DNA of 64,000 bases from Patescibacteria group bacterium (GCA_018900835.1 JAHIFQ010000004.1:1-64000); one strand, 5' to 3'; counted from the first letter of the stretch, positions 11,669 to 35,911 are shown. Notes: generated by a model not told the origin, from the letters alone. Translations and numbers: made by a program.

Positions 11669-12029
11669 ATTTATTATTATTTATTAAAAAATCTCTATAA
11701 TTTTTTTCGGCTTTAATAATTTCTTTTTTTGGTGTTTTGCTTGTTTTCTTTAAAAACGCGTGTAAAAGAATAATTTTTTTGCTAACAAATGTAAAATAAA
11801 ATATTCTATGATGATTTTTGGAAAAACCAACTCTCAACTCTCTAATTTTCCCTTTAATGTGTTTTGAATACGGTTCATCCAAATATCCCTTCTTATCTTT
11901 TAATAATTCTAAATATGTAAAAACTTTTACCTGTTCTTTTTTAGACAGTTTATCAATGTATTCTTTCACGACTTCCTTTCCTTTAGAATCAATATAGTAA
12001 TAGATCCTATGGTCCCCTAAATATGTCAT
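11661..12029 (-). CDS. RelE/ParE-superfamily toxin, HigB/Gp49-like
   Basis: Blocks EPYSKHIKGKIRELR and RIFYF...IILLHAF.KK..KTP match the Gp49/HigB family. The toxin-first order matches HigBA. Confidence 0.6.
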   Translation of the reverse strand: MTYLGDHRIYYYIDSKGKEVVKEYIDKLSKKEQVKVFTYLELLKDKKGYLDEPYSKHIKGKIRELRVGFSKNHHRIFYFTFVSKKIILLHAFLKKTSKTPKKEIIKAEKNYRDFLINNNKYD

Positions 12030-16907: not shown

Positions 16908-19256
16908 ATGAAGTTAAAAAATTTCCTCATTATATCAAAACGAAAAATACTACTTTGGCTGGTTTTTGCTTTTACAATGATTTTTATCCCATTGCATCCC
17001 ATAAGAGCGCAGTGGGGTATTGAAATCCTTACCGCCCCATTTGTTCTGCTGGCAAAACTCGTGACGTTGTGTATTGTTGGGGTTCCGGTATCTTTTTGGT
17101 GCCTCGATATAGCTCAAATATTTCTGACTTGGGCTGCCAATCCTGCTCTAGTTGGCGGAGTTACCAATAATCCTTTTGTCCTGGCGGGCTGGGCAACGAT
17201 TAGGGATTTCAGCAATCTCTTTTTTATCCTGATTATCGTGGCAATCGGAATAGCGACTGCTTTGAGAGTAAAACAATATGAGGTAAGGAAAACCCTTCCT
17301 CGCCTGATTATTGTCGCTGTATTGATAAACTTTTCTCCTGTAATCTGCGGGGTCTTCATAGACGCTGCTAATATCATTGCTAATTTCTTTTTCACTGCAG
17401 GAGCCGGGGGATTCAGCGACGTCATTACTATTGCGCAAAGTTCAAAAGGTTGGTTGGTAAGAGAACTCTCCAGTATCTCCGGCGTCTGGGCGCAGATAAG
17501 AACAGGCGAACTTTTCTTCAAGGCAATAGCTGTGTTAGTTTTCAATTTATTCGGAACTTTTGTCTTATTCCTAATGGGCATACTTTTCATAGTCAGAAAT
17601 CTTGCTTTGTGGATTTTAGTAATCTTATCTCCTCTAGCATTCCTTTCTTCCATATTCCCCAAAAATCCTGTTACTAAAAAAGCCACTCCTTTTGGTATGT
17701 GGCGAGACCAATTCGTAAAATGGACTTTTGTTGGGGTTACTGGCTCATTCTTCTTATATCTAGCCCAATTGATGATGAGAATGGGAACAAAAACGCTTCT
17801 TAATAACAATCTGCCCGCAACACATGCGTCCGATGCTGGCGGGAATATAATAACCGGCTTAATGGTAATGGCTGTGCCTTTGGTTTTCCTTGGCATAGGA
17901 TATTTTGTTACTGTTTCCAGTTCAGCAATGGGAGCAGGCGCCATCACTAATTTTGGCAAAAAAGGCCTTGCCTGGGGCAAGAGCAAAGCTGGAGGTATGG
18001 CAATAAACAGATTGAGAAAAGATATTGTAGACCCTTATAAGAGAGCAGGACAAAAGGTGGGAGAAAGAATAGCAAACAAGGCGCCAGGGGAAAGAGCAGA
18101 ACGCTACAAGCAATCTCATGGCATTGCTAAGGTTGGTAAAACAATAGCAAGAGGAGCAATTCCTTATTCAATTAGAGAATGGGGTGCTGCAAAATTAAAA
18201 CCTGGTCTAGCTGAAAGAGGTGTTTCTAATGTCGAAAAAGCAAAAGATGAAGCTGGAAAACTAAAAACAAAAGAAGGACGTCGAGCTCAATACAATAAAG
18301 CAAAAAGGGAAAAGAATAGAGAAAAGCAACTTGGAGTTGTCGTGCAAGCAATAGAAAAAGGAGAATTGGATGGATATTCAGATGGAGAAATTCAATCTGC
18401 AATAAAAGACGCTGGACAAATTAATAAAAAATTAGCAGAAGATATAATACAAGCAACTCCTAATTTAGCGCAAGAGATTTATGATGATTATCATGCTGAT
18501 AATCCGAATATAATGACTGAATATAACAACTTAAACACACAATTAACAACTGCTAACGCTGCTGGGAATCAACCATTAGCCGAAAAATTAGAAAGACAAA
18601 TGGATAGAGTTAAACAACCAGCAGATAGTCGAGGGTTATGGATGTCGCCAGAAGACATACAGCACTATGGAACTTTTGAGGCGAAAACAGTACTCACAAC
18701 AAAAGCAAAAGATATTGGAAAGCTAAGAAAAAATTATGTAAAGACAAATAGATTTATGGAAATCGCCCAAGATGCCAGCCACCAAGGCAAAAATGCATTG
18801 AGTGGAAACCATCTATCAAAAATAGCAGAAGAGTACGGAACATCTGCGGTTGATTTGTATAACGATACTTCTGACAGGATAAATCCAACTGGTAGATGGA
18901 TGGCTGATATCGCGCCTGACCGTCCTCATCCTATAAAAAGATATTTAGACACTAATCCTGGGGCTATTGCAGCAGGATATAGAATGCCAACTACAGGAGG
19001 AGGTACAGGAGGAGGAGGAGGAGGTGGTGGGACAATTTTAACACCTTCCCCAACTACTCATGTGAAAACAACTAGTCAACCAAAGATGGACGAAAGACAG
19101 AGAGCAGAAATGGAAGAAGAGCGCAGGAGAAAGAGCAGGGAGACTGGTGATAAAGGCGACCGTGGCGGTGGCGGAGAAGAATCTGATCCAAATCGTCCAG
19201 GAGGTAGACCAGGATATGGAGGAGGAAGTGGTCGTCCCGGAGGTAGACCAGGGTAG
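16908..19256 (+). CDS. VirB6/TrbL-like polytopic membrane protein with long Gly/Pro/Arg-rich C-terminal tail
   Basis: About 6 TM helices in the first 330 aa, then a hydrophilic region ending in poly-Gly and GRPG repeats. The topology and tail resemble TrbL/VirB6. The GC content is higher than in flanking genes. Confidence 0.4.
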   Translation: MKLKNFLIISKRKILLWLVFAFTMIFIPLHPIRAQWGIEILTAPFVLLAKLVTLCIVGVPVSFWCLDIAQIFLTWAANPALVGGVTNNPFVLAGWATIRDFSNLFFILIIVAIGIATALRVKQYEVRKTLPRLIIVAVLINFSPVICGVFIDAANIIANFFFTAGAGGFSDVITIAQSSKGWLVRELSSISGVWAQIRTGELFFKAIAVLVFNLFGTFVLFLMGILFIVRNLALWILVILSPLAFLSSIFPKNPVTKKATPFGMWRDQFVKWTFVGVTGSFFLYLAQLMMRMGTKTLLNNNLPATHASDAGGNIITGLMVMAVPLVFLGIGYFVTVSSSAMGAGAITNFGKKGLAWGKSKAGGMAINRLRKDIVDPYKRAGQKVGERIANKAPGERAERYKQSHGIAKVGKTIARGAIPYSIREWGAAKLKPGLAERGVSNVEKAKDEAGKLKTKEGRRAQYNKAKREKNREKQLGVVVQAIEKGELDGYSDGEIQSAIKDAGQINKKLAEDIIQATPNLAQEIYDDYHADNPNIMTEYNNLNTQLTTANAAGNQPLAEKLERQMDRVKQPADSRGLWMSPEDIQHYGTFEAKTVLTTKAKDIGKLRKNYVKTNRFMEIAQDASHQGKNALSGNHLSKIAEEYGTSAVDLYNDTSDRINPTGRWMADIAPDRPHPIKRYLDTNPGAIAAGYRMPTTGGGTGGGGGGGGTILTPSPTTHVKTTSQPKMDERQRAEMEEERRRKSRETGDKGDRGGGGEESDPNRPGGRPGYGGGSGRPGGRPG

Positions 19257-19334: not shown

Positions 19335-20486
19335 TCAACGCTGTTCCAACAACTCTAGTATCTTCTGAATATCAGCCTTGAGTTGGCTGATCTCTTCGGG
19401 GGTTGTTTTATCTTGTGTTTTTCCAAACACGCCTTTCAGAATCTCCGAAAGACCTGGGACTGATTGAATCGTCAAGCTCGCTGCCAAAGGCGATTTTTCG
19501 ACCGCTTCAAGCGTTCTAACGAGCTTTCCAAGGTCTCCGAAGCGTTGAATCACTTCATAAACCTTTTCAAGGCGAGCAACTTCTCCATCCGCCTCAATTG
19601 ACGCCTTTTCTCGCGTCGCTTCAGCAGTTACGATAGTTGCTTCTTTGTCCATCTCAGCATTGAACTTCTTGAGCGTAGCAGCCCGATAATCAGCAGGTGG
19701 GTCAATGCTTATAACCCCCAAGCTGATAACCTTAATTCCATACTCATTTTCTATCTCTGGAATCGGACCGCCAAGAATAGAGAGCTCGTTGAAAATGTCC
19801 TTTCCGATGTCACTCGCCTTCTTGATGTGCTCGTCGTAGGTTTTTCCTGTGACCTTGTCGCGGACAGCGGCTCGCAAGGGCTGAATAGTCAACTCCAACC
19901 AATTCTGTGCCACGAATAAGGCCTTGTATGGGTTCACCACTCGGAGCTTGAGGATGAAGTGGAGCGATAGCGGAAGCTTATTCATGTCTTCCGCGCCTTC
20001 CACGCTGAAATGGTACTGGTCATCCTTAAGGATGATGTAATCCATCCACTCGCGGGGGTGATGTTGGATAGTCCCATCTGCCTTCACCCCTGTCCACTCA
20101 AAGGTGTATATGAACAGGTCTAAAATGGGCCAAAATCCATACCAGCGCAAACCGCCCAAGAAACGCTTTTTTTCTTGGTCCGGGCCAATACTGATAACAT
20201 TGTAGTCCGCATCAAGGCCATGTCCTTTCCACTGAATTAGCGCTTTCGCAACCTGATCGCCTTTGACAATGAACTTCACCGTGCCTTCGGGCATAAATGT
20301 GAAGAACTTGTTGCGCTGGGCGAGCACGAAGTAGACCAAAGCGAGTATCCCAGCGAGAATCGCTGCAACAACAAGAATAAACACCAAGGTCGGGACAGGT
20401 CTCACAAGAAACGAAATGAAAAGAGCCACTCCAACCACTGCCAACGCTATCCACAATACTGTTCTTTTACTTATCATATCTCTCAT
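19335..20486 (-). CDS. SPFH/band-7 (stomatin/HflC-like) membrane protein
   Basis: An N-terminal TM pair, then a band-7 core and a C-terminal coiled-coil (ATIVTAEATREKASIEADGEVARLEKVYEV). Its GC content is noticeably higher than the window average. Confidence 0.7.
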   Translation of the reverse strand: MRDMISKRTVLWIALAVVGVALFISFLVRPVPTLVFILVVAAILAGILALVYFVLAQRNKFFTFMPEGTVKFIVKGDQVAKALIQWKGHGLDADYNVISIGPDQEKKRFLGGLRWYGFWPILDLFIYTFEWTGVKADGTIQHHPREWMDYIILKDDQYHFSVEGAEDMNKLPLSLHFILKLRVVNPYKALFVAQNWLELTIQPLRAAVRDKVTGKTYDEHIKKASDIGKDIFNELSILGGPIPEIENEYGIKVISLGVISIDPPADYRAATLKKFNAEMDKEATIVTAEATREKASIEADGEVARLEKVYEVIQRFGDLGKLVRTLEAVEKSPLAASLTIQSVPGLSEILKGVFGKTQDKTTPEEISQLKADIQKILELLEQR

Positions 20487-20723
20487 CTCCTTGTATCTCT
20501 TTTTTTATTCTTTTGTGAAGGTACGACTCTACTATATGTAGAAACGGAGGATTCCAATGAATCTCCTTTGTTTCTTATGTCCATATTATACCAATAAATA
20601 CTTGCTCTGTCAACTTTTTTACAGGTTCCGATTCGTGTTCTTTGCTACCTGTTAATTTCTTTCTCTTAATTGCTGTGTTAAAATGGATTAAGATAAATTA
20701 GTATGATAAAATTATAGAACTAA

Positions 20724-21140
20724 ATGTTTATGGAAGAATTATCCCGAGACCAACTTTGGGCAATTTATAATACCCTGTCTGACACTCTAAAAGATGCGAT
20801 ATTTTCAGAAGATACTGCTGATGCTATTTTTAATATCTGTAAACTCTATGAAATAGATAAAAACTCGGAAGTGGCAAAAATAGTGGGCAGAATCCTGATG
20901 GGTCTTTTGCCTCCGGAATTCTTGAAAGACACGCTTCAAGAGGAAACAGGAATAAACGAAGACATTGCGAAGAAAACAACAATGGAGATAGAGCATTTTA
21001 TTTTAAATCCAGTGAAAAAAGAATTAGATGCTCTGTATCAAGAGGTTCAAGAAAAAAAAGAAAAGCCAGCAGGCGATATAAAAGAACAACCCTTGGAGGA
21101 ATTGGAGAAAGAAGATGATTATAGAGAACCAATACAATAA
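20724..21140 (+). CDS. Acidic hypothetical protein
   Basis: 138 aa, with no motifs recognised. Confidence 0.3.
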   Translation: MFMEELSRDQLWAIYNTLSDTLKDAIFSEDTADAIFNICKLYEIDKNSEVAKIVGRILMGLLPPEFLKDTLQEETGINEDIAKKTTMEIEHFILNPVKKELDALYQEVQEKKEKPAGDIKEQPLEELEKEDDYREPIQ

Positions 21141-21169: not shown

Positions 21170-21595
21170 TTGCGAAGCATGGAGTATCCCTTACCACAAT
21201 TTTTATCAATAAAACCAAAGGTTGCCGGGCCGTTTAATCTGGCGCAATTACTTTGGATTGTTGGCGGAGCATTAGTATCAATAATTTTCTATTTCACTGC
21301 TCCTCTTATGACTTTTGTTTTAATCGGCATTCCGATTATGATTGTTGCTTTTATTTTGGCTTTTGGCAAAAGAAAGGGCTTCCCAATTCCAACAATAATA
21401 GTCCGTTCTTTTTCGTTCATTTTTGCCAGCAAAAGATATCTTTGGAAAAAAATTGACACTCCAGCGATTATGCTTCCAAAAGCAACCAAGGCAAAACCCG
21501 TAGAACCAAAAGACGACAAAGCAATTAGTTTAAAAATTTCCGGGCAGAGCCGTTTAAAAGAAATCGGACGATTAATTGAAATCCATTCCAAGTAA
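21170..21595 (+). CDS. Small 2-TM membrane protein (possible VirB3/PrgI-like)
   Basis: Two hydrophobic helices immediately upstream of the VirB4 genes. The assignment rests on position only. Confidence 0.3.
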   Translation: MRSMEYPLPQFLSIKPKVAGPFNLAQLLWIVGGALVSIIFYFTAPLMTFVLIGIPIMIVAFILAFGKRKGFPIPTIIVRSFSFIFASKRYLWKKIDTPAIMLPKATKAKPVEPKDDKAISLKISGQSRLKEIGRLIEIHSK

Positions 21596-21607
21596 ATTTC
21601 CTATATT

Positions 21608-22246
21608 ATGAATCTATCATCACAACAATTCCTGCCATTGGAACAGATAAAAGAGGGCATTATGATATTGAAAGACCATAGCTTAAGGGGCGTAATGATG
21701 GCATCCTCTTTAAACTTTGCTCTTAAAGCAACCGAAGAACAAGAAGCAATTATCTATCAATTCCAAACATTTTTAAATGCTTTGGATTTTTCCTGCCAAA
21801 TTTTTATTGCTTCAAGAAAAGTGAACATCACCGGCTATCTGGAAAAACTGAAAGAAGTTGAAGAAAAACATGAAAATGAATTAATGGCAACACAGACAAG
21901 GGAATACCGAAAATTTATTGAAAAAATAGTGGCAGGTGGCGCTATTATGAATAAAAATTTCTATATAATCGTGCCATTTTATCTTTCAGAAATGTATGGA
22001 AGCGCTACCAAGGGCGGACTGATATCTTTAAAAGCAATCCCAACATTAACCGAAGAAATGTTCCAAAGAGCAAAGTCCCAACTTTACCAAAGAATGGAAT
22101 TCTTGTCTTTGGGATTGAGAAGGTGCGGGGTTTGGAGCGTTGCATTACAAAGCGAAGAGCTGATAGAGCTTTTCTGGAGCATGTCTCATCCAAAAGAATC
22201 GTCTATCGGTTATTATCCAGAAATCCCGCCCGAATTAATACAATAG
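21608..22246 (+). CDS. VirB4/TrbE-family ATPase, N-terminal domain (ends at in-frame TAG 12 nt before the main VirB4 ORF)
   Basis: LPLEQIKEGIMILKDHSLRGVMMASSLNFAL..EEQEAIIYQFQTFLNAL matches the VirB4/TrbE N-terminal signature (dG.ll.kdGsl...). It is in the same reading frame as 22259..25858. Confidence 0.5.
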   Translation: MNLSSQQFLPLEQIKEGIMILKDHSLRGVMMASSLNFALKATEEQEAIIYQFQTFLNALDFSCQIFIASRKVNITGYLEKLKEVEEKHENELMATQTREYRKFIEKIVAGGAIMNKNFYIIVPFYLSEMYGSATKGGLISLKAIPTLTEEMFQRAKSQLYQRMEFLSLGLRRCGVWSVALQSEELIELFWSMSHPKESSIGYYPEIPPELIQ

Positions 22247-22258
22247 CGAATAAATAAA

Positions 22259-25200
22259 ATGAAACTTTCCTTTTTAGATGGATTATTAGGAAAAAAGACA
22301 GAATATGAGGCTGGTGCAGAACCGCAAGCAATGAACTTGCTTGATTTTATAGCTCCTCCAGCGATTACAATCGGGTCTGACTATTTCCAGATAGGCGAAA
22401 AATTCGCTAAATCATACTTTATTTTCTCTTACCCGAGATATTTGAGCACTGGGTGGTTGGCGCCAATTATAAACTTGGACATTCCATTGGACATTTCTAT
22501 TTTCTTTCATCCGATTGATACTGGGCTTATTCTGAAAAAATTAAGTAAAAAGGTTACTGAAGTTCAGTCGGAAATAATGGAAAAGGAAGAAAAGGGTTTA
22601 ATAAGGGACCCTATCCTTGAGACCGCTTACAAAGACATTGAGGTATTAAGAGACCGGCTCCAAACAGCGCAGGAAAGAATGTTCAGGGTTGGAATGTATC
22701 TGACCATATATGCTGATGACAAAAAGGAGTTGGAAAAAATAGAGGGCACTGTTCGCTCAATCCTTGAATCAAAATTGGTTTATGTAAAACCAGCCCTCTA
22801 CCAACAGGATAAGGCAATGATTTCAGCGTATCCCGCTGGTATAGACCGACTTCAAGTGCATACATCTATCAATACTAGTCCTCTCTCAACAATTTTCCCA
22901 TTTGTGTCTTTTGATTTGAGTTCAAACGAAGGAATCCTTTACGGGATAAACCAGCACAACAGCTCACTAGTGTTGTTTGACAGGTTTAGCTTGGAAAATG
23001 CAAACTCAGTCGTTTTCGGTAAGAGTGGCGGAGGCAAAAGCATTTTATCATCTGAACCAGTTCTGATAAGCGAGAACGGACAAACCAAGATTGAGAACAT
23101 CGGCAAAGTTGTAGAAAGAGCAATAGAAAAACACGGGTGCCATAAAATTGACGAGGAATTAGAGGGAGCAATAAATCCATATATCAAAGTTTGGAGTTTT
23201 GATAAAAATCTTAAAGGCAGTTGGTCAACGGTGACTGTTGCTGCAAGAAAAAAAGCTCCTGAAATATTTTATAAATTCAGAACCCGAAGCGGAAGAGAGG
23301 TGAGCACAACAGGAGACCACAATATGTTAATCCTTAAAAATGGACAAATAACCGCAGAAAAAAGCTCTGAAATTAATGAAGGAGAATTTATCCCGTTGTC
23401 CAGAAGGATTTCTGAAAACTCCTCTCCAGATAAATTCATAAACTTGCTTGAATTACTAAAAAATTCCCACTTGGTTTATGTTTTCAACGCTGAAAAAATC
23501 ATCAAAAAATATTATCATCAGATAAAAAATCTTGATAGTGGTTCCTCTTTAAAAAAATATCTCTATAAATACAAAGATGGTAGAAGGATTCCTATTAAAT
23601 ACTTCCTTGAAATTATTGATTCTTTAAAAATTTCAGAAGCCGAGCTTAATGATTTAAAAATTGTTTCCAAAAATGGAGATATTGCCAATGGCTTAAATAT
23701 AATCTTGCCTATTTCAAATAATCTGTTAAAAATAATCGGATTTATAGCATCAGAAGGAACAGTTGGCGAAAACTTTATAAATATCAGTAACCAAGACGAA
23801 GAATTCATCAAAGAGTGTATGGACTCTTTCAAGAATATTGGGGTTCCGTGCTATCAAGCAGACAAAGCTATTATTTGCGCAAGCCGTATTTTCACAGAAA
23901 TCATCAAGGCATTAGGCGGAAAACAGAAGTCCGGAGATAAGACGGTTTTGCCATTTATATTTAATGCTGAAAAAGAAAAAATTGCGCAATTCCTTTCCGC
24001 TTATTTTGAGGGAGACGGCGGGGTAGAACATGATAAAATATGCGCCACAACCAAATCAAAACAGCTATCTTCTGAAATTTCTTATCTGCTTTACTATTTT
24101 GGAATCATTGCCAGAATCCAAAAGAAAATTAAATGCGCCACCAATACAGAAGAAAAAAGAAAACAAACATATTGGCAAATTTCTGTATCAGGGAAGAATG
24201 ATTTAGAAAAGTTTGCCCAAGAAATTGGATTCATTTCTCACAGGAAAATAAACAAACTAAATAGCATTATTAAAGAAAATGGGAATACAAATGTTGATAT
24301 AATCCCGGGCTTAGCTCCGTTGTTTGAAGAAATCTACAACACCTGTCCTCCGCTCCTTATGGGCATGCAAACGGTCTCTGCTCTAAAGCGCGGGATATAT
24401 AATCCTTCACCAGATAATTTAAAAAACATAATAGAAAAAATAGAAAAACGGATTACTTATTTTAAAGATAGAGGAGAACAAATAAAAGTCCTGTCAGGAT
24501 TGCCAGAAATTCAGGAATTAATTGAATACGGAGAAAACATAGACAAAGAAACAGAAGACAATCTTGATTATAATTATAGTCCACAAGTCATAATGACCGA
24601 GCAAGCAAAGCAAACCGACCGACTTATTTGGCAGGAATACCAAGAAATTTTAAGAAATGGTATTCCAAAAATTGAAAATATTATCAAACGCCTAAAAAAT
24701 CTAGCAAACTCTGATTTATTTTTTGACGAAATCGTAAATATTGAAAAAATAGCCAACAAAGATGAACAATATGTTTATGATTTAACAGTGGACAACGAAG
24801 TATTTCTCTGCGGAAACGGTGGAATGTTTGTTCACAATTCGTACGCAATTAAGTTGGAGATTTTAAGGTCTTTGATGCTTGGAATTGAATCAATTATTAT
24901 TGACCCTGAAAACGAATATAGATTCCTTTCTGACGCAGTGGGCGGGAAGTTCTATAATATTTCTTTGGCATCAGAAAGCCATATAAACCCTTTTGACCTG
25001 CCAGAACCAGTTGATGATGAAGAGCCAAAAGATGTTTTGCGCTCCAACATTATCAACTTGGTTGGGCTTATGAGAATAATGCTTGGCGGGCTCACGCCTG
25101 AAGAGGACTCTGTTATTGACCAAGCTATTAACGAAACATATGCTGCCCGCGACATCACCGCAGACACAGACCCTGGTCTATGGAAAGAAAGGGTGCCATT

Positions 25201-25858
25201 GATGTCTGATTTAGAATCAGTGCTGGAAACAATGGAAGGCGCTGAATCGCTGGTTAAACGATTAAGAAAATTCACCAAAGGCGTTTACGCGGGATTCTTT
25301 AATTATCCAACAAATGTAGTAATGGATAATGCTTTGGTTGTTTTTGGCATTAAAAATCTTGAAACAGAATTAAGGCCATTGGCAATGTTTATTGTTATGC
25401 GCTACATTTGGAACGCCATTAAAGGTGATTTAAAAAAGAGAATCTTGGTGATTGACGAAGCGTGGTGGCTGATGCAAACAGAAGACAGCGCTTCTTTCCT
25501 TTATGGAATTGTAAAAAGAGGAAGAAAATATTGGCTTGGCACAACCACAATCACACAGGATGTGAACGATTTTATGAAATCAGACTATGGCCAGCCCATA
25601 ATCACAAATTCATCTTTGCAACTCTTGATGAAACAATCTCCAGCCACTATTCAGGTTGTAAAAGAGACCTTCAATCTTACTGACCAAGAAAAATACCTGC
25701 TTTTGGAAGCGCCTATTGGCGAAGGAATATTTTTTGCCGGAGAAAAACATGTTTCTATCAGGATTGTTGCTTCCTACACAGAGGACCAAATCATAACAAC
25801 CTCGCCTGAAGAAATGTCTAAAATAAAAAAGCTTAAAAAGATAAAAGAAAATGCCTGA
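22259..25858 (+). CDS. VirB4/TrbE/TraC-family conjugative ATPase containing a ~597-aa intein in the P-loop
   Basis: The exteins carry Walker A GKSGGGKS (aa 254-261), Walker B RILVIDEAWW and a VirB4 C-terminal region. The intein starts right after the P-loop and ends FVHN|S. Confidence 0.8.
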   Translation: MKLSFLDGLLGKKTEYEAGAEPQAMNLLDFIAPPAITIGSDYFQIGEKFAKSYFIFSYPRYLSTGWLAPIINLDIPLDISIFFHPIDTGLILKKLSKKVTEVQSEIMEKEEKGLIRDPILETAYKDIEVLRDRLQTAQERMFRVGMYLTIYADDKKELEKIEGTVRSILESKLVYVKPALYQQDKAMISAYPAGIDRLQVHTSINTSPLSTIFPFVSFDLSSNEGILYGINQHNSSLVLFDRFSLENANSVVFGKSGGGKSILSSEPVLISENGQTKIENIGKVVERAIEKHGCHKIDEELEGAINPYIKVWSFDKNLKGSWSTVTVAARKKAPEIFYKFRTRSGREVSTTGDHNMLILKNGQITAEKSSEINEGEFIPLSRRISENSSPDKFINLLELLKNSHLVYVFNAEKIIKKYYHQIKNLDSGSSLKKYLYKYKDGRRIPIKYFLEIIDSLKISEAELNDLKIVSKNGDIANGLNIILPISNNLLKIIGFIASEGTVGENFINISNQDEEFIKECMDSFKNIGVPCYQADKAIICASRIFTEIIKALGGKQKSGDKTVLPFIFNAEKEKIAQFLSAYFEGDGGVEHDKICATTKSKQLSSEISYLLYYFGIIARIQKKIKCATNTEEKRKQTYWQISVSGKNDLEKFAQEIGFISHRKINKLNSIIKENGNTNVDIIPGLAPLFEEIYNTCPPLLMGMQTVSALKRGIYNPSPDNLKNIIEKIEKRITYFKDRGEQIKVLSGLPEIQELIEYGENIDKETEDNLDYNYSPQVIMTEQAKQTDRLIWQEYQEILRNGIPKIENIIKRLKNLANSDLFFDEIVNIEKIANKDEQYVYDLTVDNEVFLCGNGGMFVHNSYAIKLEILRSLMLGIESIIIDPENEYRFLSDAVGGKFYNISLASESHINPFDLPEPVDDEEPKDVLRSNIINLVGLMRIMLGGLTPEEDSVIDQAINETYAARDITADTDPGLWKERVPLMSDLESVLETMEGAESLVKRLRKFTKGVYAGFFNYPTNVVMDNALVVFGIKNLETELRPLAMFIVMRYIWNAIKGDLKKRILVIDEAWWLMQTEDSASFLYGIVKRGRKYWLGTTTITQDVNDFMKSDYGQPIITNSSLQLLMKQSPATIQVVKETFNLTDQEKYLLLEAPIGEGIFFAGEKHVSIRIVASYTEDQIITTSPEEMSKIKKLKKIKENA
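23048..24838 (+). mobile_element. Intein with LAGLIDADG (dodecapeptide) homing-endonuclease domain inside VirB4
   Basis: Block A lies after GKSGGGKSIL (S-SEPVLISENG). The LAGLIDADG blocks are KIIGFIASEGTVGE and IAQFLSAYFEGDGGVE. The C-terminal splice junction is VHN followed by the +1 Ser. The rejoined extein reads GKSGGGKSIL-SYAIKLEIL. Confidence 0.7.
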
Positions 25859-26153
25859 AACATTGTCAGCAAGAGGAATTATGAGATTGATAATCGCTAT
25901 CATTCTTGATATCTTTGGTTTCCTTTGTTCAGCCATTTCCCTTCTCGGGCTACCAGGAATGTTTATAGGCGGAGCGCTTTCGCTTATTCCAGACGGCTTA
26001 GGATTCATTTTTATAGGCGGAATGAACAGAAAAAAGGATAGGGAATTCTACCTTTCTTTCGTGGCTGAAATTATTCCTGGATTGGGAGCTCTTCCTTTTT
26101 GGACAGCATATGTTCTGCTTGGGAAAGGATATACTCCATCTGACCCTAAATAA
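25851..26153 (+). CDS. Small membrane protein (3 TM), hypothetical
   Basis: Overlaps the VirB4 stop by 8 nt. It is Gly-rich and hydrophobic. Confidence 0.3.
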   Translation: MPETLSARGIMRLIIAIILDIFGFLCSAISLLGLPGMFIGGALSLIPDGLGFIFIGGMNRKKDREFYLSFVAEIIPGLGALPFWTAYVLLGKGYTPSDPK

Positions 26154-26157
26154 AAAA

Positions 26158-28722
26158 ATGACGAATAACACGAAAAAATTTATTCTGTTTATGGGGTCAA
26201 TCTTATTGGCTGTTTTTTTGTTAACAATAGTCCATTTTTCAAGAGTAAGCGCTGCTGATTTGGAAAACATATACCCAGATGTTCCTGGAGCAATAACGCC
26301 AACAACCACTGAAACGCCTCTGCCTGTATTATTAAAATATATTTATAATCTTTCTATTATCTTGGCCGGCTTTATAGCATTTGTAGTCATGGTTTGGGGA
26401 GGTGTGAAATATATTTTAGCTGGACCAAGGCCAGGAAAATTGGCAGACGCCAAGGAACAAATCACGCTCGGATTAGTAGGCATGATGCTGATTTTCGCTT
26501 CATATATGATAGTAAACACCATAAATCCTGACTTTACTAAATTAATAACAATTCTGCCCATTACTTTTACCGATACCTTTATCCCATCAAGCGATAATCC
26601 AAGTTCAATGGATGTCGGACTTTACGAGATTCCTATCGGCTCAATCATCACCTCTGAATTCGGAGCTTCCTCTTTTTTGGCAACCACTAGTCCAGATATT
26701 GACTACGCTAATACCGAATGGCCGCCTACAATCACAAGCACTAGCACCTATGATACTGATTTTCAGGGCGCTCTTTTCGGAGCGCGCCTAAGGCGAATAC
26801 ACGAAGTTGCCAGCACCACTGTGCCAGTGGCAAAAAAATTACACGATTTGAGCAACGGGCTCCATGATTTAATAAATAAATGCACTTGCATGTTCGGATG
26901 TCATGGGAATATCCTATTAATATGCGCCGTATCTACAGATTGCGGATGCGACACAGGATATTTGTGCAGTGATGACACAAAAGACAAAATGGAAAAAAGA
27001 ATAGGGGAAATCGAATCCTTAAAAGACGCTTTTAAGGCCTTCTTAAATCCCAATTCCCTTGTAGAGGATTATTATAACAATAATCAATCAGATATTGACG
27101 GCTTGGATGATGATGAAATAAAAGACCTTATCCAGATGATGATAGAGGTAGAGAATAAGGGCGGTTATAGTCCGAAAAACGACCCGCATGAAAGAGATAT
27201 TGGGAGAAATCTGCTTGAAATGACTGCTTTTATAAATGAAATGAATAAGATGAAAAGAATGCTCAACCCCTATGACCAGGATGTGGGCTATTTAAGCTTG
27301 CTTACATTCGCCGAAGCCACCACGCTGGAAGCCAATATGGATGTAAGCTCCACTATTTATAATTATTTCGCCGCCCTTCCAGCTGGGCTGGAAAAAATTG
27401 ACGAAAAAAACGACCCTGCCACTTTTTATTCAGCAGCCACTCTTCCTTTTCCATATGGGATGCCAGACGATAGACCGTATAATCAAGATGCTCCGGAACC
27501 CGATTTTCTGCCTTATTATCCAGGAGAAAGAAAAATGTCCTATCAAAAAAACATTGCTTTCGCAGCCGTACCATTCGTTCCCCCAAATGTGCAATTTGAT
27601 TTTGACACCCCTCCAAGCACGGGCGGAACCTGTAATTATATATTGGAAATCCCTATCGGCAGAGCATTAGATGAGGCAATCAATCTCGCCCAAGCAATCA
27701 ATAAAGAATTATTTAATATATTCGTCAAAGGACATATAGAAATAATCGGCGCCAATATGCTGATAAAAGCAGCAGAAAAATTCATTGACCTGAAATGCGT
27801 CGATGCCTGCATCAAGCCAACATGTGTCGGCGAACCACCTCTCGCATTATGCGTTCCACCATTCCTCTGTATGCCGACTCTCGAAACAATATTCTTGAAT
27901 GCTCAAAGTGATATTGCCATATTCCTTATTGAATTAACAACTATCCCGGGTATGAACATTGCCATAGATGATATTGAAACTTCATTCAAAAAATTGGACT
28001 CCCAGGAACCGATTTTGATAGACCGCGTGTGTAAAGACGAAAAAGGAAATTGTCGAAAAAGGAACGGAACAATTAATAATAGTAAAGTAGAAGAAAGGGA
28101 ATATACTTTAAAAGAAAAATTAATGGAGGTTCAACTTCTGCTTAATAGGTCTAGGGAGCTCGTCGGCCAGGACAAAGAAAAAAGCGTTTACGAAATCTTG
28201 TTAGAGGATTACATTGCCCTCGGTTTTGGCAAATATTATGAAGATTTGTTAAAATATATAAGGAGGATTGACGCTATTGAAAGAACCGACCTTCAGGACT
28301 GCCACATAATATCCGGAACCATCAAGAAAATAGAGGGAGAGAATTACAGCACATCATTGATGAATTGCCGAGATGCCAAGCTCCTGGACTTGATAGATTT
28401 CTATAATGAAGACATTTGCAGTCCTAATCCTTATCTTGACGCCAATTATTATTTAAAACCCGAAGCCCGCAAGTTAAGGCCTATCAGTTGTTATTGCTAT
28501 GACGAGGATGCTGACAAAAAATACTATAATAAAAAGGATTTCCCTGAACTCTACCAAAGTATAAGCATTATTGTTCCCAGTTTTATGGCTGATATAGAAG
28601 ATTTAGACACTGATGCCCTGCATGATTTGGCGCAACAATGGCAAAATGCCCGTATAGACCTCAATCATTTCTCCGGATTCGGCAATAATTATTTTTGCTG
28701 TATTAAAAATTATGAAGAATAA
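26158..28722 (+). CDS. Large Cys-rich surface protein with pilin-like (VirB2/TrbC-like) N-terminal 2-TM module
   Basis: The start is placed at MTNNTKK, because the ORF track start at 26110 overlaps the previous gene. The N-terminal ~130 aa are homologous to the next ORF (YIYN..II.AG.IA......GG..Y..AG.P....DA.EQI..GLVG.....SYMI.N.INPD). Roughly 700 aa of Cys-rich extracellular domain follow. Confidence 0.45.
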   Translation: MTNNTKKFILFMGSILLAVFLLTIVHFSRVSAADLENIYPDVPGAITPTTTETPLPVLLKYIYNLSIILAGFIAFVVMVWGGVKYILAGPRPGKLADAKEQITLGLVGMMLIFASYMIVNTINPDFTKLITILPITFTDTFIPSSDNPSSMDVGLYEIPIGSIITSEFGASSFLATTSPDIDYANTEWPPTITSTSTYDTDFQGALFGARLRRIHEVASTTVPVAKKLHDLSNGLHDLINKCTCMFGCHGNILLICAVSTDCGCDTGYLCSDDTKDKMEKRIGEIESLKDAFKAFLNPNSLVEDYYNNNQSDIDGLDDDEIKDLIQMMIEVENKGGYSPKNDPHERDIGRNLLEMTAFINEMNKMKRMLNPYDQDVGYLSLLTFAEATTLEANMDVSSTIYNYFAALPAGLEKIDEKNDPATFYSAATLPFPYGMPDDRPYNQDAPEPDFLPYYPGERKMSYQKNIAFAAVPFVPPNVQFDFDTPPSTGGTCNYILEIPIGRALDEAINLAQAINKELFNIFVKGHIEIIGANMLIKAAEKFIDLKCVDACIKPTCVGEPPLALCVPPFLCMPTLETIFLNAQSDIAIFLIELTTIPGMNIAIDDIETSFKKLDSQEPILIDRVCKDEKGNCRKRNGTINNSKVEEREYTLKEKLMEVQLLLNRSRELVGQDKEKSVYEILLEDYIALGFGKYYEDLLKYIRRIDAIERTDLQDCHIISGTIKKIEGENYSTSLMNCRDAKLLDLIDFYNEDICSPNPYLDANYYLKPEARKLRPISCYCYDEDADKKYYNKKDFPELYQSISIIVPSFMADIEDLDTDALHDLAQQWQNARIDLNHFSGFGNNYFCCIKNYEE

Positions 28723-30256
28723 AGAGATGAAAAAAATCATATTAATAATAAGTGTTTTGGTTGTCCTCTCTTGCGCAGGACTAATATACGCCCTTGAAGT
28801 AGAATATCCAACTGTAGGCGGTATGCAGGGCCCACAGGATACTGGAGTCAAATTAACAACCTATATCCGTTATATCTATAACTTTGCCATTATAAGCGGA
28901 GGACTGATTGCTTTATTGGCTTTAATTTACGGCGGATTCAGATTTTTGACTTCAGCTGGCAATCCAAGCGCTATCACAGACGCAAGAGAACAAATCTTAG
29001 CAGGACTTTTGGGATTGGTTGTTATTTTGGGTTCATATATAATACTAAACGAACTGAATCCTGACTTAGTGTCATTGAGAATCCCGGGGATTGACGCAAA
29101 CAGAAAGGGAATAATTTTATATAGTCAGGCCGGTTGCGGTGGATTGAGCGATGATGACGCTTCTATGCCCGAGGTTGCTGATATCCCTGACGGCCTGCTT
29201 TACAAAGCAATGAACAGCAGCGGATCAATAACAGATCAAGACGGAAACAGTTTTCTTCCTGTGTCTCTGTTTTCTTTTCAGGATTCAAAAGATTTAATAA
29301 TACAATTTTATTCCAATGACAAATGCGAAGGAAACACGGTTCCAGCGCCACAACTTAATTCTAACCAATGTTTAGATATCAGCGCTTCTAATCTTAAGTG
29401 CATAAAGTTCATTTGGTACAAGCCCGGGGTCTGGGTCTTCAACCAATTAGAAAATGGAGCTAATGTGCCTGACCCCGGTGACCTGCCTCTTGGATGGGAA
29501 GAAGGAAAAGAATATATAGTATTCCAGAGCAATCAAGAATCTTTACCAAACAACTTCCACGACCAAATTGTGGCTCTGGTAATCGTGCCCAGTAAAGAGT
29601 CCGAGGAAGGATTGGGGAAAAACTACGGCGTAATCGCCCACAATATCCCCGGACCCATGCTCAAAGAAAAAGGTTGGGCCCATATTTATCTGCCGGGAAA
29701 CGGTTCTGCTTCGGGTTGCCGATTATCTGGAGAGATAACTAAGTGCGGACCATTTGAAAATAATTCTTCTGATATTTCTTCGTTAACAATATTCAATATG
29801 CCCAAAGAAGGAACAGCCACTAAGGCAATAAAGGTTTGCCGAAATGACAGATGCGAGCCGCAGAGAGTCGGAGATGACTTCTTTGATGTTTATAAAGAAT
29901 ATTTTCCGGGAAGCGGACTTCAAGAAAGAACCAGTGTTTTCGGAGGAGCGGTGTCTCCCTATAACCTCGGAAGCGGAATAGTGTATGGTAAAAATCTTAA
30001 TGGTGAAAATTGGGATACTGGCAATCCTATTGTTCTTGGCAGGAATCAGGCAGACGGGGTTTCAGCTATTGAAATAGATGAAGGAGCCCGTTATCTGACG
30101 CTCCTTTACGACGAATATCTTGATTTTTCCAATATTAATACTAACACTTCGGCTGACGCAGCCATTATCAATATTTCTATGCCATCTTTGAGAACAATTC
30201 AAATGGATGGTAGAGTTGGGACAATTATAGTTATCCGAGTGGGGACAGAAGATTAA
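28712..30256 (+). CDS. Second surface protein with the same pilin-like N-terminal module, different C-terminal domain
   Basis: N-terminal motifs YIYNFAIISGGLIALLALIYGGFRFLTSAGNPSAITDAREQILAGLLGLVVILGSYIILNELNPD. Its start overlaps the upstream gene by 11 nt. Confidence 0.45.
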   Translation: MKNKEMKKIILIISVLVVLSCAGLIYALEVEYPTVGGMQGPQDTGVKLTTYIRYIYNFAIISGGLIALLALIYGGFRFLTSAGNPSAITDAREQILAGLLGLVVILGSYIILNELNPDLVSLRIPGIDANRKGIILYSQAGCGGLSDDDASMPEVADIPDGLLYKAMNSSGSITDQDGNSFLPVSLFSFQDSKDLIIQFYSNDKCEGNTVPAPQLNSNQCLDISASNLKCIKFIWYKPGVWVFNQLENGANVPDPGDLPLGWEEGKEYIVFQSNQESLPNNFHDQIVALVIVPSKESEEGLGKNYGVIAHNIPGPMLKEKGWAHIYLPGNGSASGCRLSGEITKCGPFENNSSDISSLTIFNMPKEGTATKAIKVCRNDRCEPQRVGDDFFDVYKEYFPGSGLQERTSVFGGAVSPYNLGSGIVYGKNLNGENWDTGNPIVLGRNQADGVSAIEIDEGARYLTLLYDEYLDFSNINTNTSADAAIINISMPSLRTIQMDGRVGTIIVIRVGTED

Positions 30257-30715
30257 TTAAACTGGTTTGATGATGATTTTACGGTAAGGGTCTGCGCCAA
30301 TGCTTTCGGTTTTGACATCGCTCCTATCTTTGAGTTCTATATGAACAATTCTTCTTTCATAAGCTGACATTGGTTTCAGCTCTTTTTCTTGTCTGGAAAG
30401 AGCGACATCATCAGCATAACTTTTAGCAGTATCTTTTAAATAATCAAGTTTCTTTTTCTTGTAATCATTGATATCCAAATCAATATAAAACTCTTCTTTA
30501 AATTTTTTTCTTAAAAACTTGTTCAACAGGTTCTGGATTTCAAAAAGAGTCCTGCCATTTTCGCCAATCAGGATTTGCGGTTCTTCCATTTGAATCAAAA
30601 CCGGCATTGATGAGTCAGTCATTTCCTCAACCTCTACTTTTGTTTCAAGGGTGGTTTTTTTAAAAAATTCCTGAACTGCTTTTCTCACTTTTTGGCTTAG
30701 TTTCCTTTCAAACAT
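30257..30715 (-). CDS. jag: Jag/KhpB-like KH + R3H RNA-binding protein
   Basis: KH-like ILIGENGRTLFEIQNLL and R3H MSAYERRIVHIELKDRSDVKTESIG. It sits in the conserved position after yidC. Confidence 0.65.
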   Translation of the reverse strand: MFERKLSQKVRKAVQEFFKKTTLETKVEVEEMTDSSMPVLIQMEEPQILIGENGRTLFEIQNLLNKFLRKKFKEEFYIDLDINDYKKKKLDYLKDTAKSYADDVALSRQEKELKPMSAYERRIVHIELKDRSDVKTESIGADPYRKIIIKPV

Positions 30716-30716
30716 A

Positions 30717-31445
30717 TTATTTTTTCGTTAAATAATATTTTTTTCTTATGAAAAACTGCTGGCCTGCCATAAATATCCCTGCCACGAGTAAATAAAGCCC
30801 GAGCGCAGATGGCAAACGAAAAAGAATAACAGTAATCAGGATAGGGAACAGGAATAACATTTGTTTCTGGAACATATCTGCGAAACCCGGTTTTTTGGAG
30901 GACTGCTCTTCTGATTTGTCTTTTTTAGGCATAGCAAATTTGCTTTGGAGAAAAAAGGTTATCCCTGCTATCACAGCCAAAATCGGGGACGGCTCGTTCA
31001 AATTAATTCCGAGAAACATAGGATTAATCACTTCTGGCCTCTGGACAAAACTATAAAGATAAACAAAACTTTCTTCCTGTATGCCCTGCCAAAACATCCT
31101 GTAAAGAATAAATAAAATCGGCAACTGAACAAGGGTAACAAAAAACGCTGAAAAAGGATTAATTTTTTCGGTCTTATAAAGCCCCATCATTGCTTTTGCC
31201 TGCTCCTCTTTATTGTTTTTGTATTTTGCCTGAATCTCTTTCAGTTTTGGCTGTAATGCCTGCATTGCCAACTGGGACTTGCTTGCCTTATCTTGCAAAG
31301 GATATAAAATAATCCTGATAAGCAGGGTTAAGGTGATAATTGCCACTCCAAGATTATGGCCAGGCAAATAATAACAAAGCAAAATCAAGAGATTAAACAA
31401 GGGCTGCCACAATATTACATGAAAAAAATTGGTAAAAGCATTCAT
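30717..31445 (-). CDS. yidC: Membrane protein insertase YidC (short form)
   Basis: Five TM helices and a conserved 60-kDa inner-membrane-protein core. Sits in the rpmH-rnpA-yidC order. Confidence 0.85.
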   Translation of the reverse strand: MNAFTNFFHVILWQPLFNLLILLCYYLPGHNLGVAIITLTLLIRIILYPLQDKASKSQLAMQALQPKLKEIQAKYKNNKEEQAKAMMGLYKTEKINPFSAFFVTLVQLPILFILYRMFWQGIQEESFVYLYSFVQRPEVINPMFLGINLNEPSPILAVIAGITFFLQSKFAMPKKDKSEEQSSKKPGFADMFQKQMLFLFPILITVILFRLPSALGLYLLVAGIFMAGQQFFIRKKYYLTKK

Positions 31446-31449
31446 TGGT

Positions 31450-31800
31450 TTATTTCTTTTTAATAATCCCTGATTTTAATAATAGTTCTCCGATGGTTTT
31501 TTTTATTGTCTGAAAATCAATTGTCTTGTTAACTCCGTTCAAGGCGCTGATAATAATATCTTGCCCCGGGCTTATGGCTGAAAGCATTTCTTTAATTGCT
31601 CCCCTGATTCTTCTTTTAATCAAATTTCTTTCCGTTGCTTTTGAAGCAATCTTTTTACTCACCACAATCCCTATCCGTGAAACATTGGAATCATTTGTTG
31701 TAAATTTTAAAAATAAAAAATCCTGCTTAAAGCCCTTGCCTTTTTTATAAACCCTTTCAAAATCATTTTTCTTTTTAAGACGATGGATTCTTGGCAACAT
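31450..31800 (-). CDS. rnpA: RNase P protein component
   Basis: 116 aa. Carries RIGIVVSKKI...KATERNLIKRRIR (RnpA RNR motif). Confidence 0.85.
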   Translation of the reverse strand: MLPRIHRLKKKNDFERVYKKGKGFKQDFLFLKFTTNDSNVSRIGIVVSKKIASKATERNLIKRRIRGAIKEMLSAISPGQDIIISALNGVNKTIDFQTIKKTIGELLLKSGIIKKK

Positions 31801-33768: not shown

Positions 33769-34902
33769 ATGAAGATAATAATACTTAAAGAAAAATTGGC
33801 TAAAGGATTAAGTATGGTTGAGAAAATAACTGGAAGAAACTTTACTCTTCCGATTTTAAATAATGTTTTGATTTCTGCTGAAGATAACTCATTGAAATTA
33901 TCAACCACTGACCTTGAATTAGGGATTAGCTATTGGGGACTTGCGAAGGTAGAAGAAAAAGGAGAAATCACTATCCCAGTGAAAACCCTTTCTAGTTTTG
34001 TCTCTCTTATTGGAGAAGAGAAAGTGACAATAGAGAGCAAGGAAAAAACACTTTATTTAAAGGGAGAAAATTATAAGACACAGATAAAGGGGCTTGAAGC
34101 AAAGGATTTTCCAATTATCCCGGAAGTTGTTTCAGATAAATGGATTGAATTTGACGCAACTACATTTTGTAAAGGGATAATGCTTGTAATGGATTTTTGC
34201 GCACTCACTCAAGTAAGGCCTGAACTCTCTGGCTTATATTTTGTTTTTCAAAAAAATTCGGCTAAAATCGTGGCTACCGACAGTTTTCGTTTAGCGGAAA
34301 AAAGCATTGCTTTAGATGGGGCTACTCAAGGAATAGACGGTCCACAGTCATTTATTCTTCCAAGAAATGCTGCCAGGGAATTAGTCAATATTTTTTCAGA
34401 GCACAATGGAAAAATCAAGTTTTATTTATCTCCGAGTCAAATTATGGTTGAAAGCTATGTTGACGAAACCAAAAACCCACAAGCGCGCTTAGTTTCCCGT
34501 TTGATTGAAGGTGAATACCCTGATTATGAAGCAGTGATTCCAAAAGAGTTTAAAACACGGCTCACTCTTTCCAGGGAAGAATTCTCAAACCAGATTAAAA
34601 TTGCCAGTTTATTCAGCGGAAGAACGAATGAAGTAAAATTGGAAATAAGCCCTAAAAAAGGAAATGTTTTGATATCTTCGCAAAGCGTTGATTTGGGGGA
34701 AACAGAATCCAAAATGGCGATAGACGCAAGCGGAGATGATGTGGAGATAAGCTTTAATTACAAGTTTTTGTCTGAAGGATTGAATCAAATAAAATCAGAA
34801 AAAATCGTTCTTGAGCTTAATGGTCAAGACGGACCTGGTGTTTTAAAATCCAGTGACGATTCAACTTATATTTATGTAATAATGCCGATTAAGGCATCTT
34901 GA
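33769..34902 (+). CDS. dnaN: DNA polymerase III beta sliding clamp
   Basis: 377 aa with a three-domain clamp layout and the N-terminal MKIIILKEKL...NFTLPILNNVLI. Confidence 0.9.
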   Translation: MKIIILKEKLAKGLSMVEKITGRNFTLPILNNVLISAEDNSLKLSTTDLELGISYWGLAKVEEKGEITIPVKTLSSFVSLIGEEKVTIESKEKTLYLKGENYKTQIKGLEAKDFPIIPEVVSDKWIEFDATTFCKGIMLVMDFCALTQVRPELSGLYFVFQKNSAKIVATDSFRLAEKSIALDGATQGIDGPQSFILPRNAARELVNIFSEHNGKIKFYLSPSQIMVESYVDETKNPQARLVSRLIEGEYPDYEAVIPKEFKTRLTLSREEFSNQIKIASLFSGRTNEVKLEISPKKGNVLISSQSVDLGETESKMAIDASGDDVEISFNYKFLSEGLNQIKSEKIVLELNGQDGPGVLKSSDDSTYIYVIMPIKAS

Positions 34903-35275: not shown

Positions 35276-35911
35276 TTGACAACTGTATGCTGCAGACATA
35301 CAATTGTATGTAGTGAGCAAACATTTGATATGTCTCTAAATTTTACTAAAAATCAAACATTAATTCTTGGAATCCTTTTTAATCATCCAGAAAAATCCTA
35401 TTATTTAAGAGAAATAGGCAGGTTGGTAGGGAAAGAACCGGGTGTTTTTCAAAAAGATATTAACAAATTGGTTGAGAGCGGCATTTTGACCAGCGAATAT
35501 CGCGCAAAAAGCCGCTTTTTTGCGTTAAATAAGCTGCATCCCCTATATAAAGAGTACAAAAGCATTTTTTTCAAAACAATTGGCGCGGAAGGACAACTGA
35601 AATTAATTTTGAAAAATATTGAAAATATTAAAGTAGCTTTTATCTATGGCTCATTTGCTACCGGAAAAGAAGATGCTTTTTCAGATATTGATTTGATGAT
35701 AATCGGAAATCCCGATGAAGATGTTTTAATCAGAAAAATTTCTTTACTGGAAAGAAAAATAGACAGAGAAATTAATTATAATATTTTTTCACCAACAGAT
35801 ATTAGGAATAATTTATTAAATAATGAAATTTTCCTAAAAGAAATAATGGAAAGACCCAAGGCATTCATTATCGGAGACCAAAATGAACTGGAAGAAATTA
35901 TTGGAAAATAA
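35276..35911 (+). CDS. wHTH-fused minimal nucleotidyltransferase (MNT-type antitoxin)
   Basis: wHTH (LREIGRLVGKEPGVFQKDINKLVESGIL) plus the NTase motif FIYGSFATGKEDAFSDIDLMIIG (GS...D.D). Confidence 0.6.
   Translation: MTTVCCRHTIVCSEQTFDMSLNFTKNQTLILGILFNHPEKSYYLREIGRLVGKEPGVFQKDINKLVESGILTSEYRAKSRFFALNKLHPLYKEYKSIFFKTIGAEGQLKLILKNIENIKVAFIYGSFATGKEDAFSDIDLMIIGNPDEDVLIRKISLLERKIDREINYNIFSPTDIRNNLLNNEIFLKEIMERPKAFIIGDQNELEEIIGK

Follow-up and report, generated by a model that had tools for sequence, protein, structure and literature searches.

Two large proteins with a T4SS_pilin module and unrelated heads in an oriC-adjacent type IV secretion operon of a Patescibacteria group bacterium

The 64,000-nucleotide (nt) stretch of Patescibacteria group bacterium GCA_018900835.1 JAHIFQ010000004.1:1-64000 (the whole stretch is hereafter designated the window, and coordinates count from its first letter) is chromosomal, with a GC content of ~37% and housekeeping genes. 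Directly upstream of an origin block, consisting of jag-yidC-rnpA followed by dnaA and dnaN, it carries a plus-strand string of genes for a 138-amino-acid (aa) protein, PrgI/VirB3, TrsD, VirB4, a 100-aa protein, and two large proteins (hereafter designated A and B; Table 1). We found that A and B share an N-terminal module of the T4SS_pilin family (PF18895), that this module is joined in each protein to a conserved C-terminal body (head) unrelated to that of the other, and that both genes are standing members of a conserved type IV secretion system (T4SS) operon.

Within the gene string, the end of virB4 overlaps the 100-aa gene by 8 nt, the latter is separated from A by 4 nt, and A and B overlap by 11 nt; moreover, no convincing terminator was found between the 138-aa gene and B. 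Because the genes overlap or lie 4 nt apart and lack a convincing internal terminator, they are taken to form one operon, ending back-to-back with jag. A promoter-like site found by a promoter scan before the 138-aa gene (20678-20707) matches the consensus only weakly. At the downstream end, the stop codon of B (ending at 30256) abuts that of the convergent jag/R3H gene (starting at 30257) with no spacer, and the two transcription units end at one base pair, nothing resembling a terminator hairpin separating them (30254-30259). The original prediction for this DNA, made from the sequence alone, had placed the two proteins directly downstream of VirB4. Linkage to virB4 indeed holds in all related loci examined, whereas the word "directly" has to be dropped, since the 100-aa gene intervenes; A starts 300 nt and B 2.9 kb downstream of virB4, in one overlapping gene string.

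The N-termini of A and B align with 34% identity and 56% positives over 129 aa (BLASTP E 4e-22), showing that their common module, as had been proposed, is real and far beyond chance. When either N-module was searched with phmmer against the 635 six-frame ORFs of the window, the only match was the other copy (E ~1e-21), the next one having E > 0.1; the window thus holds exactly two copies of the module, and a third was rejected. Three hydrophobic segments are present in each protein (A, 4-33, 55-90, and 101-122; B, 4-32, 54-83, and 93-116), rather than the two helices described initially; the last two helices are linked by an invariant GG and a loop containing Pro, Lys, and Arg, which reads KYILAGPRPGKLADAK and FLTSAGNPSAITDAR in the two sequences. 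The first helix is laid out in n, h, and c regions like a Sec signal peptide and carries an AXA-like site (VSA before AD in A, IYA before LE in B), and signal peptides are predicted at aa 1-32 in A and aa 1-27 in B. AlphaFold2 models built on the family alignments predict the remainder of the module as a helix-loop-helix hairpin (A, 55-87 and 92-122; B, 48-80 and 85-115). Y, GG, P, and NP are the invariant non-hydrophobic positions of the module, and a (nearly) invariant N-P-D/E motif followed by a disordered linker marks the junction between module and head in both proteins.

Neither a class III signal peptide nor a G-F-T-L-x-E motif, as expected of type IV pilins, is present in A or B, whose N-termini (MTNNTKKFILFMGSILLAVFLLTIVHFSRVSA before AD and MKNKEMKKIILIISVLVVLSCAGLIYA before LE) are Sec-type and followed by two helices, and LPxTG, the motif of sortase-anchored surface proteins of Gram-positive bacteria, is absent throughout both proteins, which end in ...GFGNNYFCCIKNYEE and ...GTIIVIRVGTED, respectively. 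B was also considered as a lipoprotein on account of VLSC in its signal peptide; this was rejected, as the Cys residue is not conserved in the B family.

Full-length A matches PF18895 with 32.3 bits, above the gathering cut-off of 26.6, and its isolated module with 38.2 bits. PF18895 also matches 17 of 17 isolated modules of family members (best E 9.7e-12) and, as full-length proteins, 18 of 18 members of the B family (best E 1.4e-7) and 23 of 23 of the A family, that is, 41/41, to E 3.7e-10. On this sequence evidence, the membership of the module in PF18895 may be regarded as established; together with a predicted topology equal to the VirB2-type hairpin, it upholds the pilin-like nature first proposed for the N-termini. 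Similarity to other pilin families is much fainter: TrbC/VirB2 (PF04956) gives weak matches (E 0.012-0.02) in one of the 17 modules and four of the 23 A-family members (5/40), and the B module weakly matches NF045849, the pilin-like conjugal transfer family of Mycoplasma integrative and conjugative elements (E 1e-3). A profile search of PDB for solved pilins retrieved only unrelated membrane proteins (E ~1), comparison by hhalign with F TraA and Ti VirB2, for which the sequences used were approximate, gave probabilities <2%, and no link of the module sequence to plasmid genes was found. The kinship with classical VirB2 therefore rests on the assignment made by Pfam and the literature, together with the topology.

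Beyond the module, A and B are unrelated. Alignments of the two bodies gave an hhalign probability of 0.5%, in line with the earlier description of them as unrelated, and a BLASTP similarity between the bodies (A 719-781 and B 170-236, E 5e-4) was rejected on this basis. The body of A (~719 aa) contains 22 Cys residues (3.1%) and that of B (~386 aa) contains 8 (2.1%), compared with 1.3% in the long ORFs of the window, and both have an isoelectric point of 4.5; "Cys-rich and acidic" is thus apt for A and only mildly so for B. "Giant", another term of the original prediction, is an overstatement for proteins of 854 and 514 aa, which are large for pilins; the mature forms (~822 aa for A and ~487 aa for B) exceed the size of the small, hairpin-only VirB2 (~70-130 aa).

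In A, a low-confidence linker (aa ~129-150) leads to a head modeled by AlphaFold2 as mixed alpha/beta with long helices and Cys clusters (predicted local distance difference test score, pLDDT, 67 overall). Thirteen Cys residues, including those of the terminal FCC motif, are invariant in the 23 sequences of the A family. The head of B is predicted to be all-beta, with pLDDT mostly 80-89. A motif, D-x-[IV]-S-[SA]-[LI]-x-[IV], recurs in it at 354-361 and 447-455, with S357 and S451 nearly invariant; such Ser-containing motifs are typical of Greek-key beta-gamma-crystallin domains. The Pfam family Crystall (PF00030) matches one B-family member (E 0.003) and does not match B itself, and hhalign detected no internal repeats in the B head. 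The head is predicted to be beta-gamma-crystallin-like, and its likeness to the microbial beta-gamma-crystallins (spherulin 3a, Protein S, clostrillin, and flavollin) is a property of the predicted model only. As genomes of the candidate phyla radiation are enriched in MdbA-like oxidoreductase and VKOR, which serve extracellular disulfides (10.1101/335083), disulfide-bonded, extracellular Cys-rich domains are plausible.

We assembled 16 related loci (L001-L016) by looking up identical proteins and scanning the species genomes of GTDB; 14 of them are distinct, L001, L002, and L006 being one contig. In all of these, virB4 (where reached), the ~100-aa gene, and A follow one another in this order, and B comes next wherever the contig continues. 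The 138-aa gene, PrgI, and TrsD are present in all loci extending upstream, and dnaA comes after the operon in the nine distinct loci that are long enough downstream. The gene order is held down to ~28% identity of A, and conservation extends upstream to the TrbL/VirB6-like protein, the SPFH protein, ksgA, and an M23/LysM peptidase. In a further locus, L018, the operon is similar, and the corresponding positions are occupied by the gene for a 692-aa pilin-module protein and by a second pilin-module ORF, which is split. A has 25 full-length homologues (749-939 aa, 26-75% identity), some of them named "pilin" by NCBI, and B has 23, mostly of 510-565 aa (31-66% identity). Because the gene order is the same in all 14 distinct loci, the heads are fixed orthologous components and not swappable cassettes: there are two types, each orthologous down to ~26-33% identity and always arranged as A then B, which lends no support to the earlier proposal of interchangeable heads. 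Comparison of identities between module and body (52% versus 43% in the A family; 64% versus 38% in the B family) also revealed that conservation is highest in the module of both proteins, which is unusual for a mere membrane anchor. In three loci, a third, shorter pilin-module protein (~217-245 aa) is encoded between ksgA and the VirB6-like gene (L004, 1913-2566; L014, 1489-2226; L015, 2053-2751); it is absent from the window, in which these two genes are 35 nt apart.

Table 1 Features of the T4SS operon and its surroundings in the window
Feature	Position	Strand	Evidence
TrbL/VirB6-like polytopic membrane protein, 782 aa, upstream neighbor of the operon	16908..19256	+	Multiple hydrophobic segments; conserved synteny
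SPFH/Band_7 membrane protein, between the VirB6-like gene and the operon	19335..20486	-	Pfam Band_7, E 3.5e-9
138-aa protein, no assigned function, first gene of the plus-strand operon	20724..21140	+	ORF; orthologues at the same place in relatives
PrgI/VirB3-like small membrane protein	21170..21595	+	Pfam PF12666 PrgI, E 4.1e-7, 30.9 bits (cut-off 27)
TrsD/TraC-like protein, 212 aa, like the N-terminal domain of VirB4	21608..22246	+	NCBIfam VirB4_plasma, 5.7e-8 (residues 5-122); TrsD, 0.002
VirB4-type ATPase, 1199 aa, with intein	22259..25858	+	Pfam P-loop_TraG, AAA_10, CagE_TrbE_VirB, Intein_splicing, LAGLIDADG_3
Intein of VirB4, aa 261-860	23039..24838	+	Alignment with an intein-less orthologue
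100-aa membrane protein, three hydrophobic segments	25851..26153	+	ORF; hydropathy; same position in all relatives
Protein A, 854 aa	26158..28722	+	ORF; PF18895 match, residues 56-122
Module of A, aa 33-131	26254..26550	+	
Head of A, aa ~150-854	26605..28719	+	
Protein B, 514 aa, alternative start 28727	28712..30256	+	ORF
Module of B, aa 28-125	28793..29086	+	
Head of B, aa ~130-514	29099..30253	+	
jag-yidC-rnpA	30257..31800	-	
dnaA	32128..33507		
dnaN	33769..34902		

The distribution of the module was surveyed with a profile of its mature form searched against 1.84 billion proteins; the number of cluster representatives matched was 65,530 at E <= 1e-3, falling to 14,151 at E <= 1e-10. Architectures were examined for the best 150 of the 65,530 representatives, with 184 module-bearing proteins in all. 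The module occurs singly in 132 of the 184, always at the N-terminus and with a median C-terminal extension of 410 aa. The impression of many interchangeable heads gained from these best 150 was rejected for this family neighborhood, as the heads of 126 single-module relatives fall into essentially two clusters, 79 being B-type and 41 A-type; the best-scoring proteins thus represent the A and B families in a wider sense rather than a variety of swapped heads. In 52 of the 184 proteins, between 2 and at least 9 tandem hairpin modules stand behind one signal peptide ("polypilins"). Among them are P0054, with 6 modules in 552 aa, and P0068, with 8 in 820 aa, and also P0059, P0074, and P0123; in P0078 (1775 aa), HMMER counts 16 module stretches.

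Several candidates for a separate short pilin were tried and discarded. The 100-aa protein of the operon gave an hhalign probability of only 0.8% against the module. P0110 and P0116 lie on contigs of ~620 bp, and P0111 probably represents the first half of a second pilin-module gene that has been split by a frameshift, with a 242-aa ORF next to it in the place of B; for these reasons, none of the three is evidence for a stand-alone major pilin.

Much of the setting of A and B is already known. Most Patescibacteria have a distinct MPF_FATA-like T4SS with VirB4, PrgI/VirB3, TrsD, and VirB6 (Quinonero-Coronel et al. 2025, PMC12102498). The same study reports 1135 Patescibacterial assemblies with VirB2-like pilins (PF04956 and PF18895) near virB4, pilin genes arrayed in groups of 2-11 that have diverged to a mean identity of 25%, and T4SS clusters that often lie beside dnaA, dnaN, rnpA, ksgA, and rpmH, while relaxases, coupling proteins, and PrgB-type adhesins are missing and VirB1 homologues mostly so (PMC12102498). 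The recognition of a pilin-like module at a VirB4 locus was thus right, but it is part of a published system, since VirB2-like pilins by virB4 and dnaA are known. A and B resemble the published T4SS_pilins in belonging to PF18895 and in standing beside virB4, PrgI/VirB3, TrsD, and a VirB6-like gene, within the same neighborhood of ksgA, rnpA, dnaA, and dnaN, and, as tandem paralogues of 34% identity, they are similarly divergent. In contrast to the variable arrays of 2-11 genes, A followed by B is a fixed orthologous unit, and unlike the pilins described as small and VirB2-sized in these sources, their modules bear heads of ~720 and ~385 aa. Large C-terminal domains on these pilins are mentioned neither in the text of PMC12102498 nor in the pilin and T4SS passages of PMC10633639 and PMC12857230; as far as these passages go, VirB2-type modules with large conserved extracellular bodies as standing parts of a T4SS operon appear to be undescribed.

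With VirB2, TrbC, and TraA, the two proteins share the succession of signal peptide, hydrophobic helix, basic loop, and second hydrophobic helix, the position beside VirB3/VirB4-type genes, and, by their predicted topology, a hairpin with both termini outside. In the F- and T-pilus structures, both termini of the pilin are on the outer surface of the filament, so that a C-terminal body would be topologically compatible with incorporation into a pilus. A and B differ from these pilins in their monoderm host, in a mature size 5-8 times larger, and in their globular C-terminal body; no cyclization or acetylation machinery as for classical pilins was seen. A parallel in design is offered by modular type IV pilins such as PilB and PilC of Streptococcus sanguinis, in which a pilin module is fused to an adhesive C-terminal module, likewise in a monoderm. 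The principle would be the same, a filament-incorporation module combined with a functional C-terminal one; the two systems are nevertheless non-homologous, and in type IV pilins a prepilin peptidase removes a class III signal peptide and only one hydrophobic helix stands at the N-terminus. The outward, target-contacting role proposed for A and B recalls VirB5/TraC tip proteins and PrgB of pCF10, although PrgB is attached through LPXTG and VirB5 is free at the tip, whereas A and B would be anchored by the pilin hairpin. Since no PrgB-like adhesin was found in Patescibacteria (PMC12102498), the role of a T4SS adhesin is left vacant in this group.

Collectively, we favor, at a probability of roughly 55%, the view that A and B are ancient PF18895 paralogues serving as fixed subunits of an oriC-adjacent, chromosomal, MPF_FATA-like T4SS of monoderm type, with heads that are displayed outward and contact the host. 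A large part of bacterial diversity belongs to the Patescibacteria, whose way of life is attachment to other microbes. According to Wang et al. 2023 (PMC10633639), T4SS and pilin genes are essential for the epibiotic growth of Southlakia epibionticum, the one species amenable to genetics, which is repeated in a 2025 review that also stresses a possible pilus in a monoderm (PMC12857230); A and B are probably surface-contact parts of a machine needed for life on hosts. Judging from the n/h/c layout and the AXA-like sites, A and B would be exported by Sec and their signal peptides cut off. The two helices would then insert as a hairpin with the basic loop (GG...P-G-K...DA[KR]EQI) in the cytoplasm, leaving a short N-terminal peptide and the whole C-terminal body outside, as the positive-inside rule, the signal peptides, and the AlphaFold2 models suggest. 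The VirB4/VirB3/VirB6-like machinery may subsequently recognize the hairpin and build it into a surface structure of the T4SS. On the outside, A would present a disulfide-stabilized, Cys-rich alpha/beta body and B a rod of beta-gamma-crystallin-like beta domains, and the exposed heads might contact or adhere to the host cell of the epibiont. If the outward parts of the T4SS are headed pilin-module proteins, the heads become concrete candidates for host contact, comprising two defined protein families, and the known repertoire of the VirB2 pilin fold would be widened, beyond the bare two-helix subunit, by proteins in which it carries large domains.

Several points weigh against this view. Full-length B scores 25.6 bits, just below the PF18895 cut-off; we count it as a member because of its BLASTP E of 4e-22 to A and because all 18 B-family members match. 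No short "major" pilin gene was found in the operon or among the 635 six-frame ORFs of the window, so that the picture of minor or tip pilins seated on a filament is here without a filament subunit. No PF18895 protein is known from experiment or structure to form a pilus, still less one with a head of 385-720 aa. The A head resembles no solved fold and has no recognizable one, and nothing identifies a ligand or adhesive activity of either head; adhesion, like polymerization into a filament, is speculative. Moreover, by a rough estimate that assumes the geometry of the F-pilus, a head of ~80 kDa on every subunit would presumably be hard to pack on a VirB2-type helix. On the same assumption, every subunit could bear a projecting B-like rod of small beta domains, while the 80-kDa head of A would need either low occupancy or a long linker to be accommodated.

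The missing short pilin would be expected if the hairpin were no more than a two-helix anchor derived from a pilin ancestor, with A and B being ordinary surface proteins or static parts of an extracellular cap or stalk of the T4SS, staying in the membrane throughout and not polymerizing. This explanation is unlikely, though it deserves serious weight: the large heads, each conserved as a fixed component, are more like structural subunits than variable pilins, and Gram-positive-type T4SSs are normally without pili (PMC12102498; PMC12857230). It is nevertheless at odds with the tight gene coupling to virB4 and with the presence of the module in 65,530 representatives (E <= 1e-3) and in tandem arrays, which points to a specific interaction surface. 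Hairpin and loop are conserved more than the heads, for which reason we regard the hairpin as a probable docking or assembly element specific for the VirB4/VirB3/VirB6-like machinery rather than as a passive anchor. Somewhat more doubtful is the opposite extreme, that A and B are the only VirB2-type subunits of the clade, co-polymerized through their hairpins into a "bottle-brush" T4SS pilus or stalk of a monoderm, densely coated with radial heads that determine host recognition. If so, T4SSs would have an equivalent of the modular type IV pilins, and this would be the first VirB2-family pilin with a large functional domain.

Two further explanations concern the junction and the family assignment itself. 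A protease might cut after [NS]-P-[DE]-[LF] at the outer end of helix 2, releasing a short, VirB2-sized pilin and a freed head that is secreted or only loosely held. Classical TrbC/VirB2 pilins do undergo C-terminal processing, the (nearly) invariant N-P-D/E motif and the disordered linker are placed exactly at the boundary of module and head, and polypeptides with 2-9 tandem modules would make sense as polyproteins; but no protease gene is evident in the operon, and the motif could just as well cap the helix where it meets the membrane surface, so that we consider such a precursor improbable. It is far less probable still that A and B are unrelated to type IV secretion, their adjacency to virB4 and their Pfam match merely reflecting coincidence and hydrophobic-helix composition. 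Although matches of transmembrane hairpins are prone to compositional artefacts, and the PDB search returned only unrelated membrane proteins, the order and overlaps are kept in 14 of 14 distinct related loci, PF18895 matches 41/41 proteins, and specific non-hydrophobic positions are invariant.

With regard to the other operon proteins and their neighbors, orthologues of the 212-aa TrsD/TraC-like protein carry PF26593 (TraC-like), and those of the 782-aa VirB6-like protein carry PF19590 (TrbL_3), whereas the latter protein of the window has no Pfam match of its own. It has a long hydrophilic C-terminal half with a Gly/Arg/Pro-rich, low-complexity tail (GGGTGGGGGGGG...GGRPGYGGGSGRPGGRPG). The SPFH/Band_7 gene has the same position in L001-L005, and its membership of the T4SS is uncertain. 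The minus-strand gene at 14885-15940, immediately upstream of ksgA and those of the T4SS, encodes an M23 peptidase containing two LysM domains and keeps this place in distant relatives as well (L003, L004, L005, and L018); its product could be the cell-wall hydrolase of the T4SS, a VirB1 analogue.

The VirB4 ATPase contains a 600-aa LAGLIDADG intein, inserted directly after GKSGGGK of the Walker A motif, before the following Ser, and ending in ...VHN before Ser; its limits were set by alignment with the intein-less 597-aa orthologue of L005. Orthologues without the intein have 593-597 aa (e.g., L003-L005, L007, and L008). The intein is also found in the 75%-identical relative (L001/L002/L006), and the long, partial VirB4 ORF of L012 may contain one too.

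At the start of the window, which is evidently at or near the end of the contig, a partial ORF (2-922; 306 aa visible) encodes an acidic sequence with 9.8% Cys. It had been suggested as a possible member of the same functional class as A and B; its visible part has no Pfam or NCBIfam match and no pilin module, its N-terminus is not visible, and it has only two database homologues, both truncated at contig ends. An 894-aa, Lys/Glu-rich, coiled-coil-like protein with one transmembrane helix (6170-8854) ends in the start of an N-acetylmuramoyl-L-alanine amidase domain (...IDTIVIHSSYD...), and the rest of this Amidase_2 domain lies in another frame, in the next ORF (8808-9176). A frameshift near 8850, in an A-rich run, seems to have divided a single gene into these two ORFs; sequencing error, pseudogene formation, or recoding could account for it.

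Toxin-antitoxin-like pairs or remnants are located at 11384-12029 (minus strand), 35276-36335 (plus), and 50761-51378 (plus); the types present are HTH_3 with a Gp49/HigB-like protein, a nucleotidyltransferase with a small helical protein, and an AbiEii-type nucleotidyltransferase. Finally, a T2SSE/PilB-type ATPase (PF00437, E 1.6e-114) is encoded on the minus strand at 41754-43055, 11 kb from the T4SS operon, and the region thus also encodes part of a type IV pilus system.

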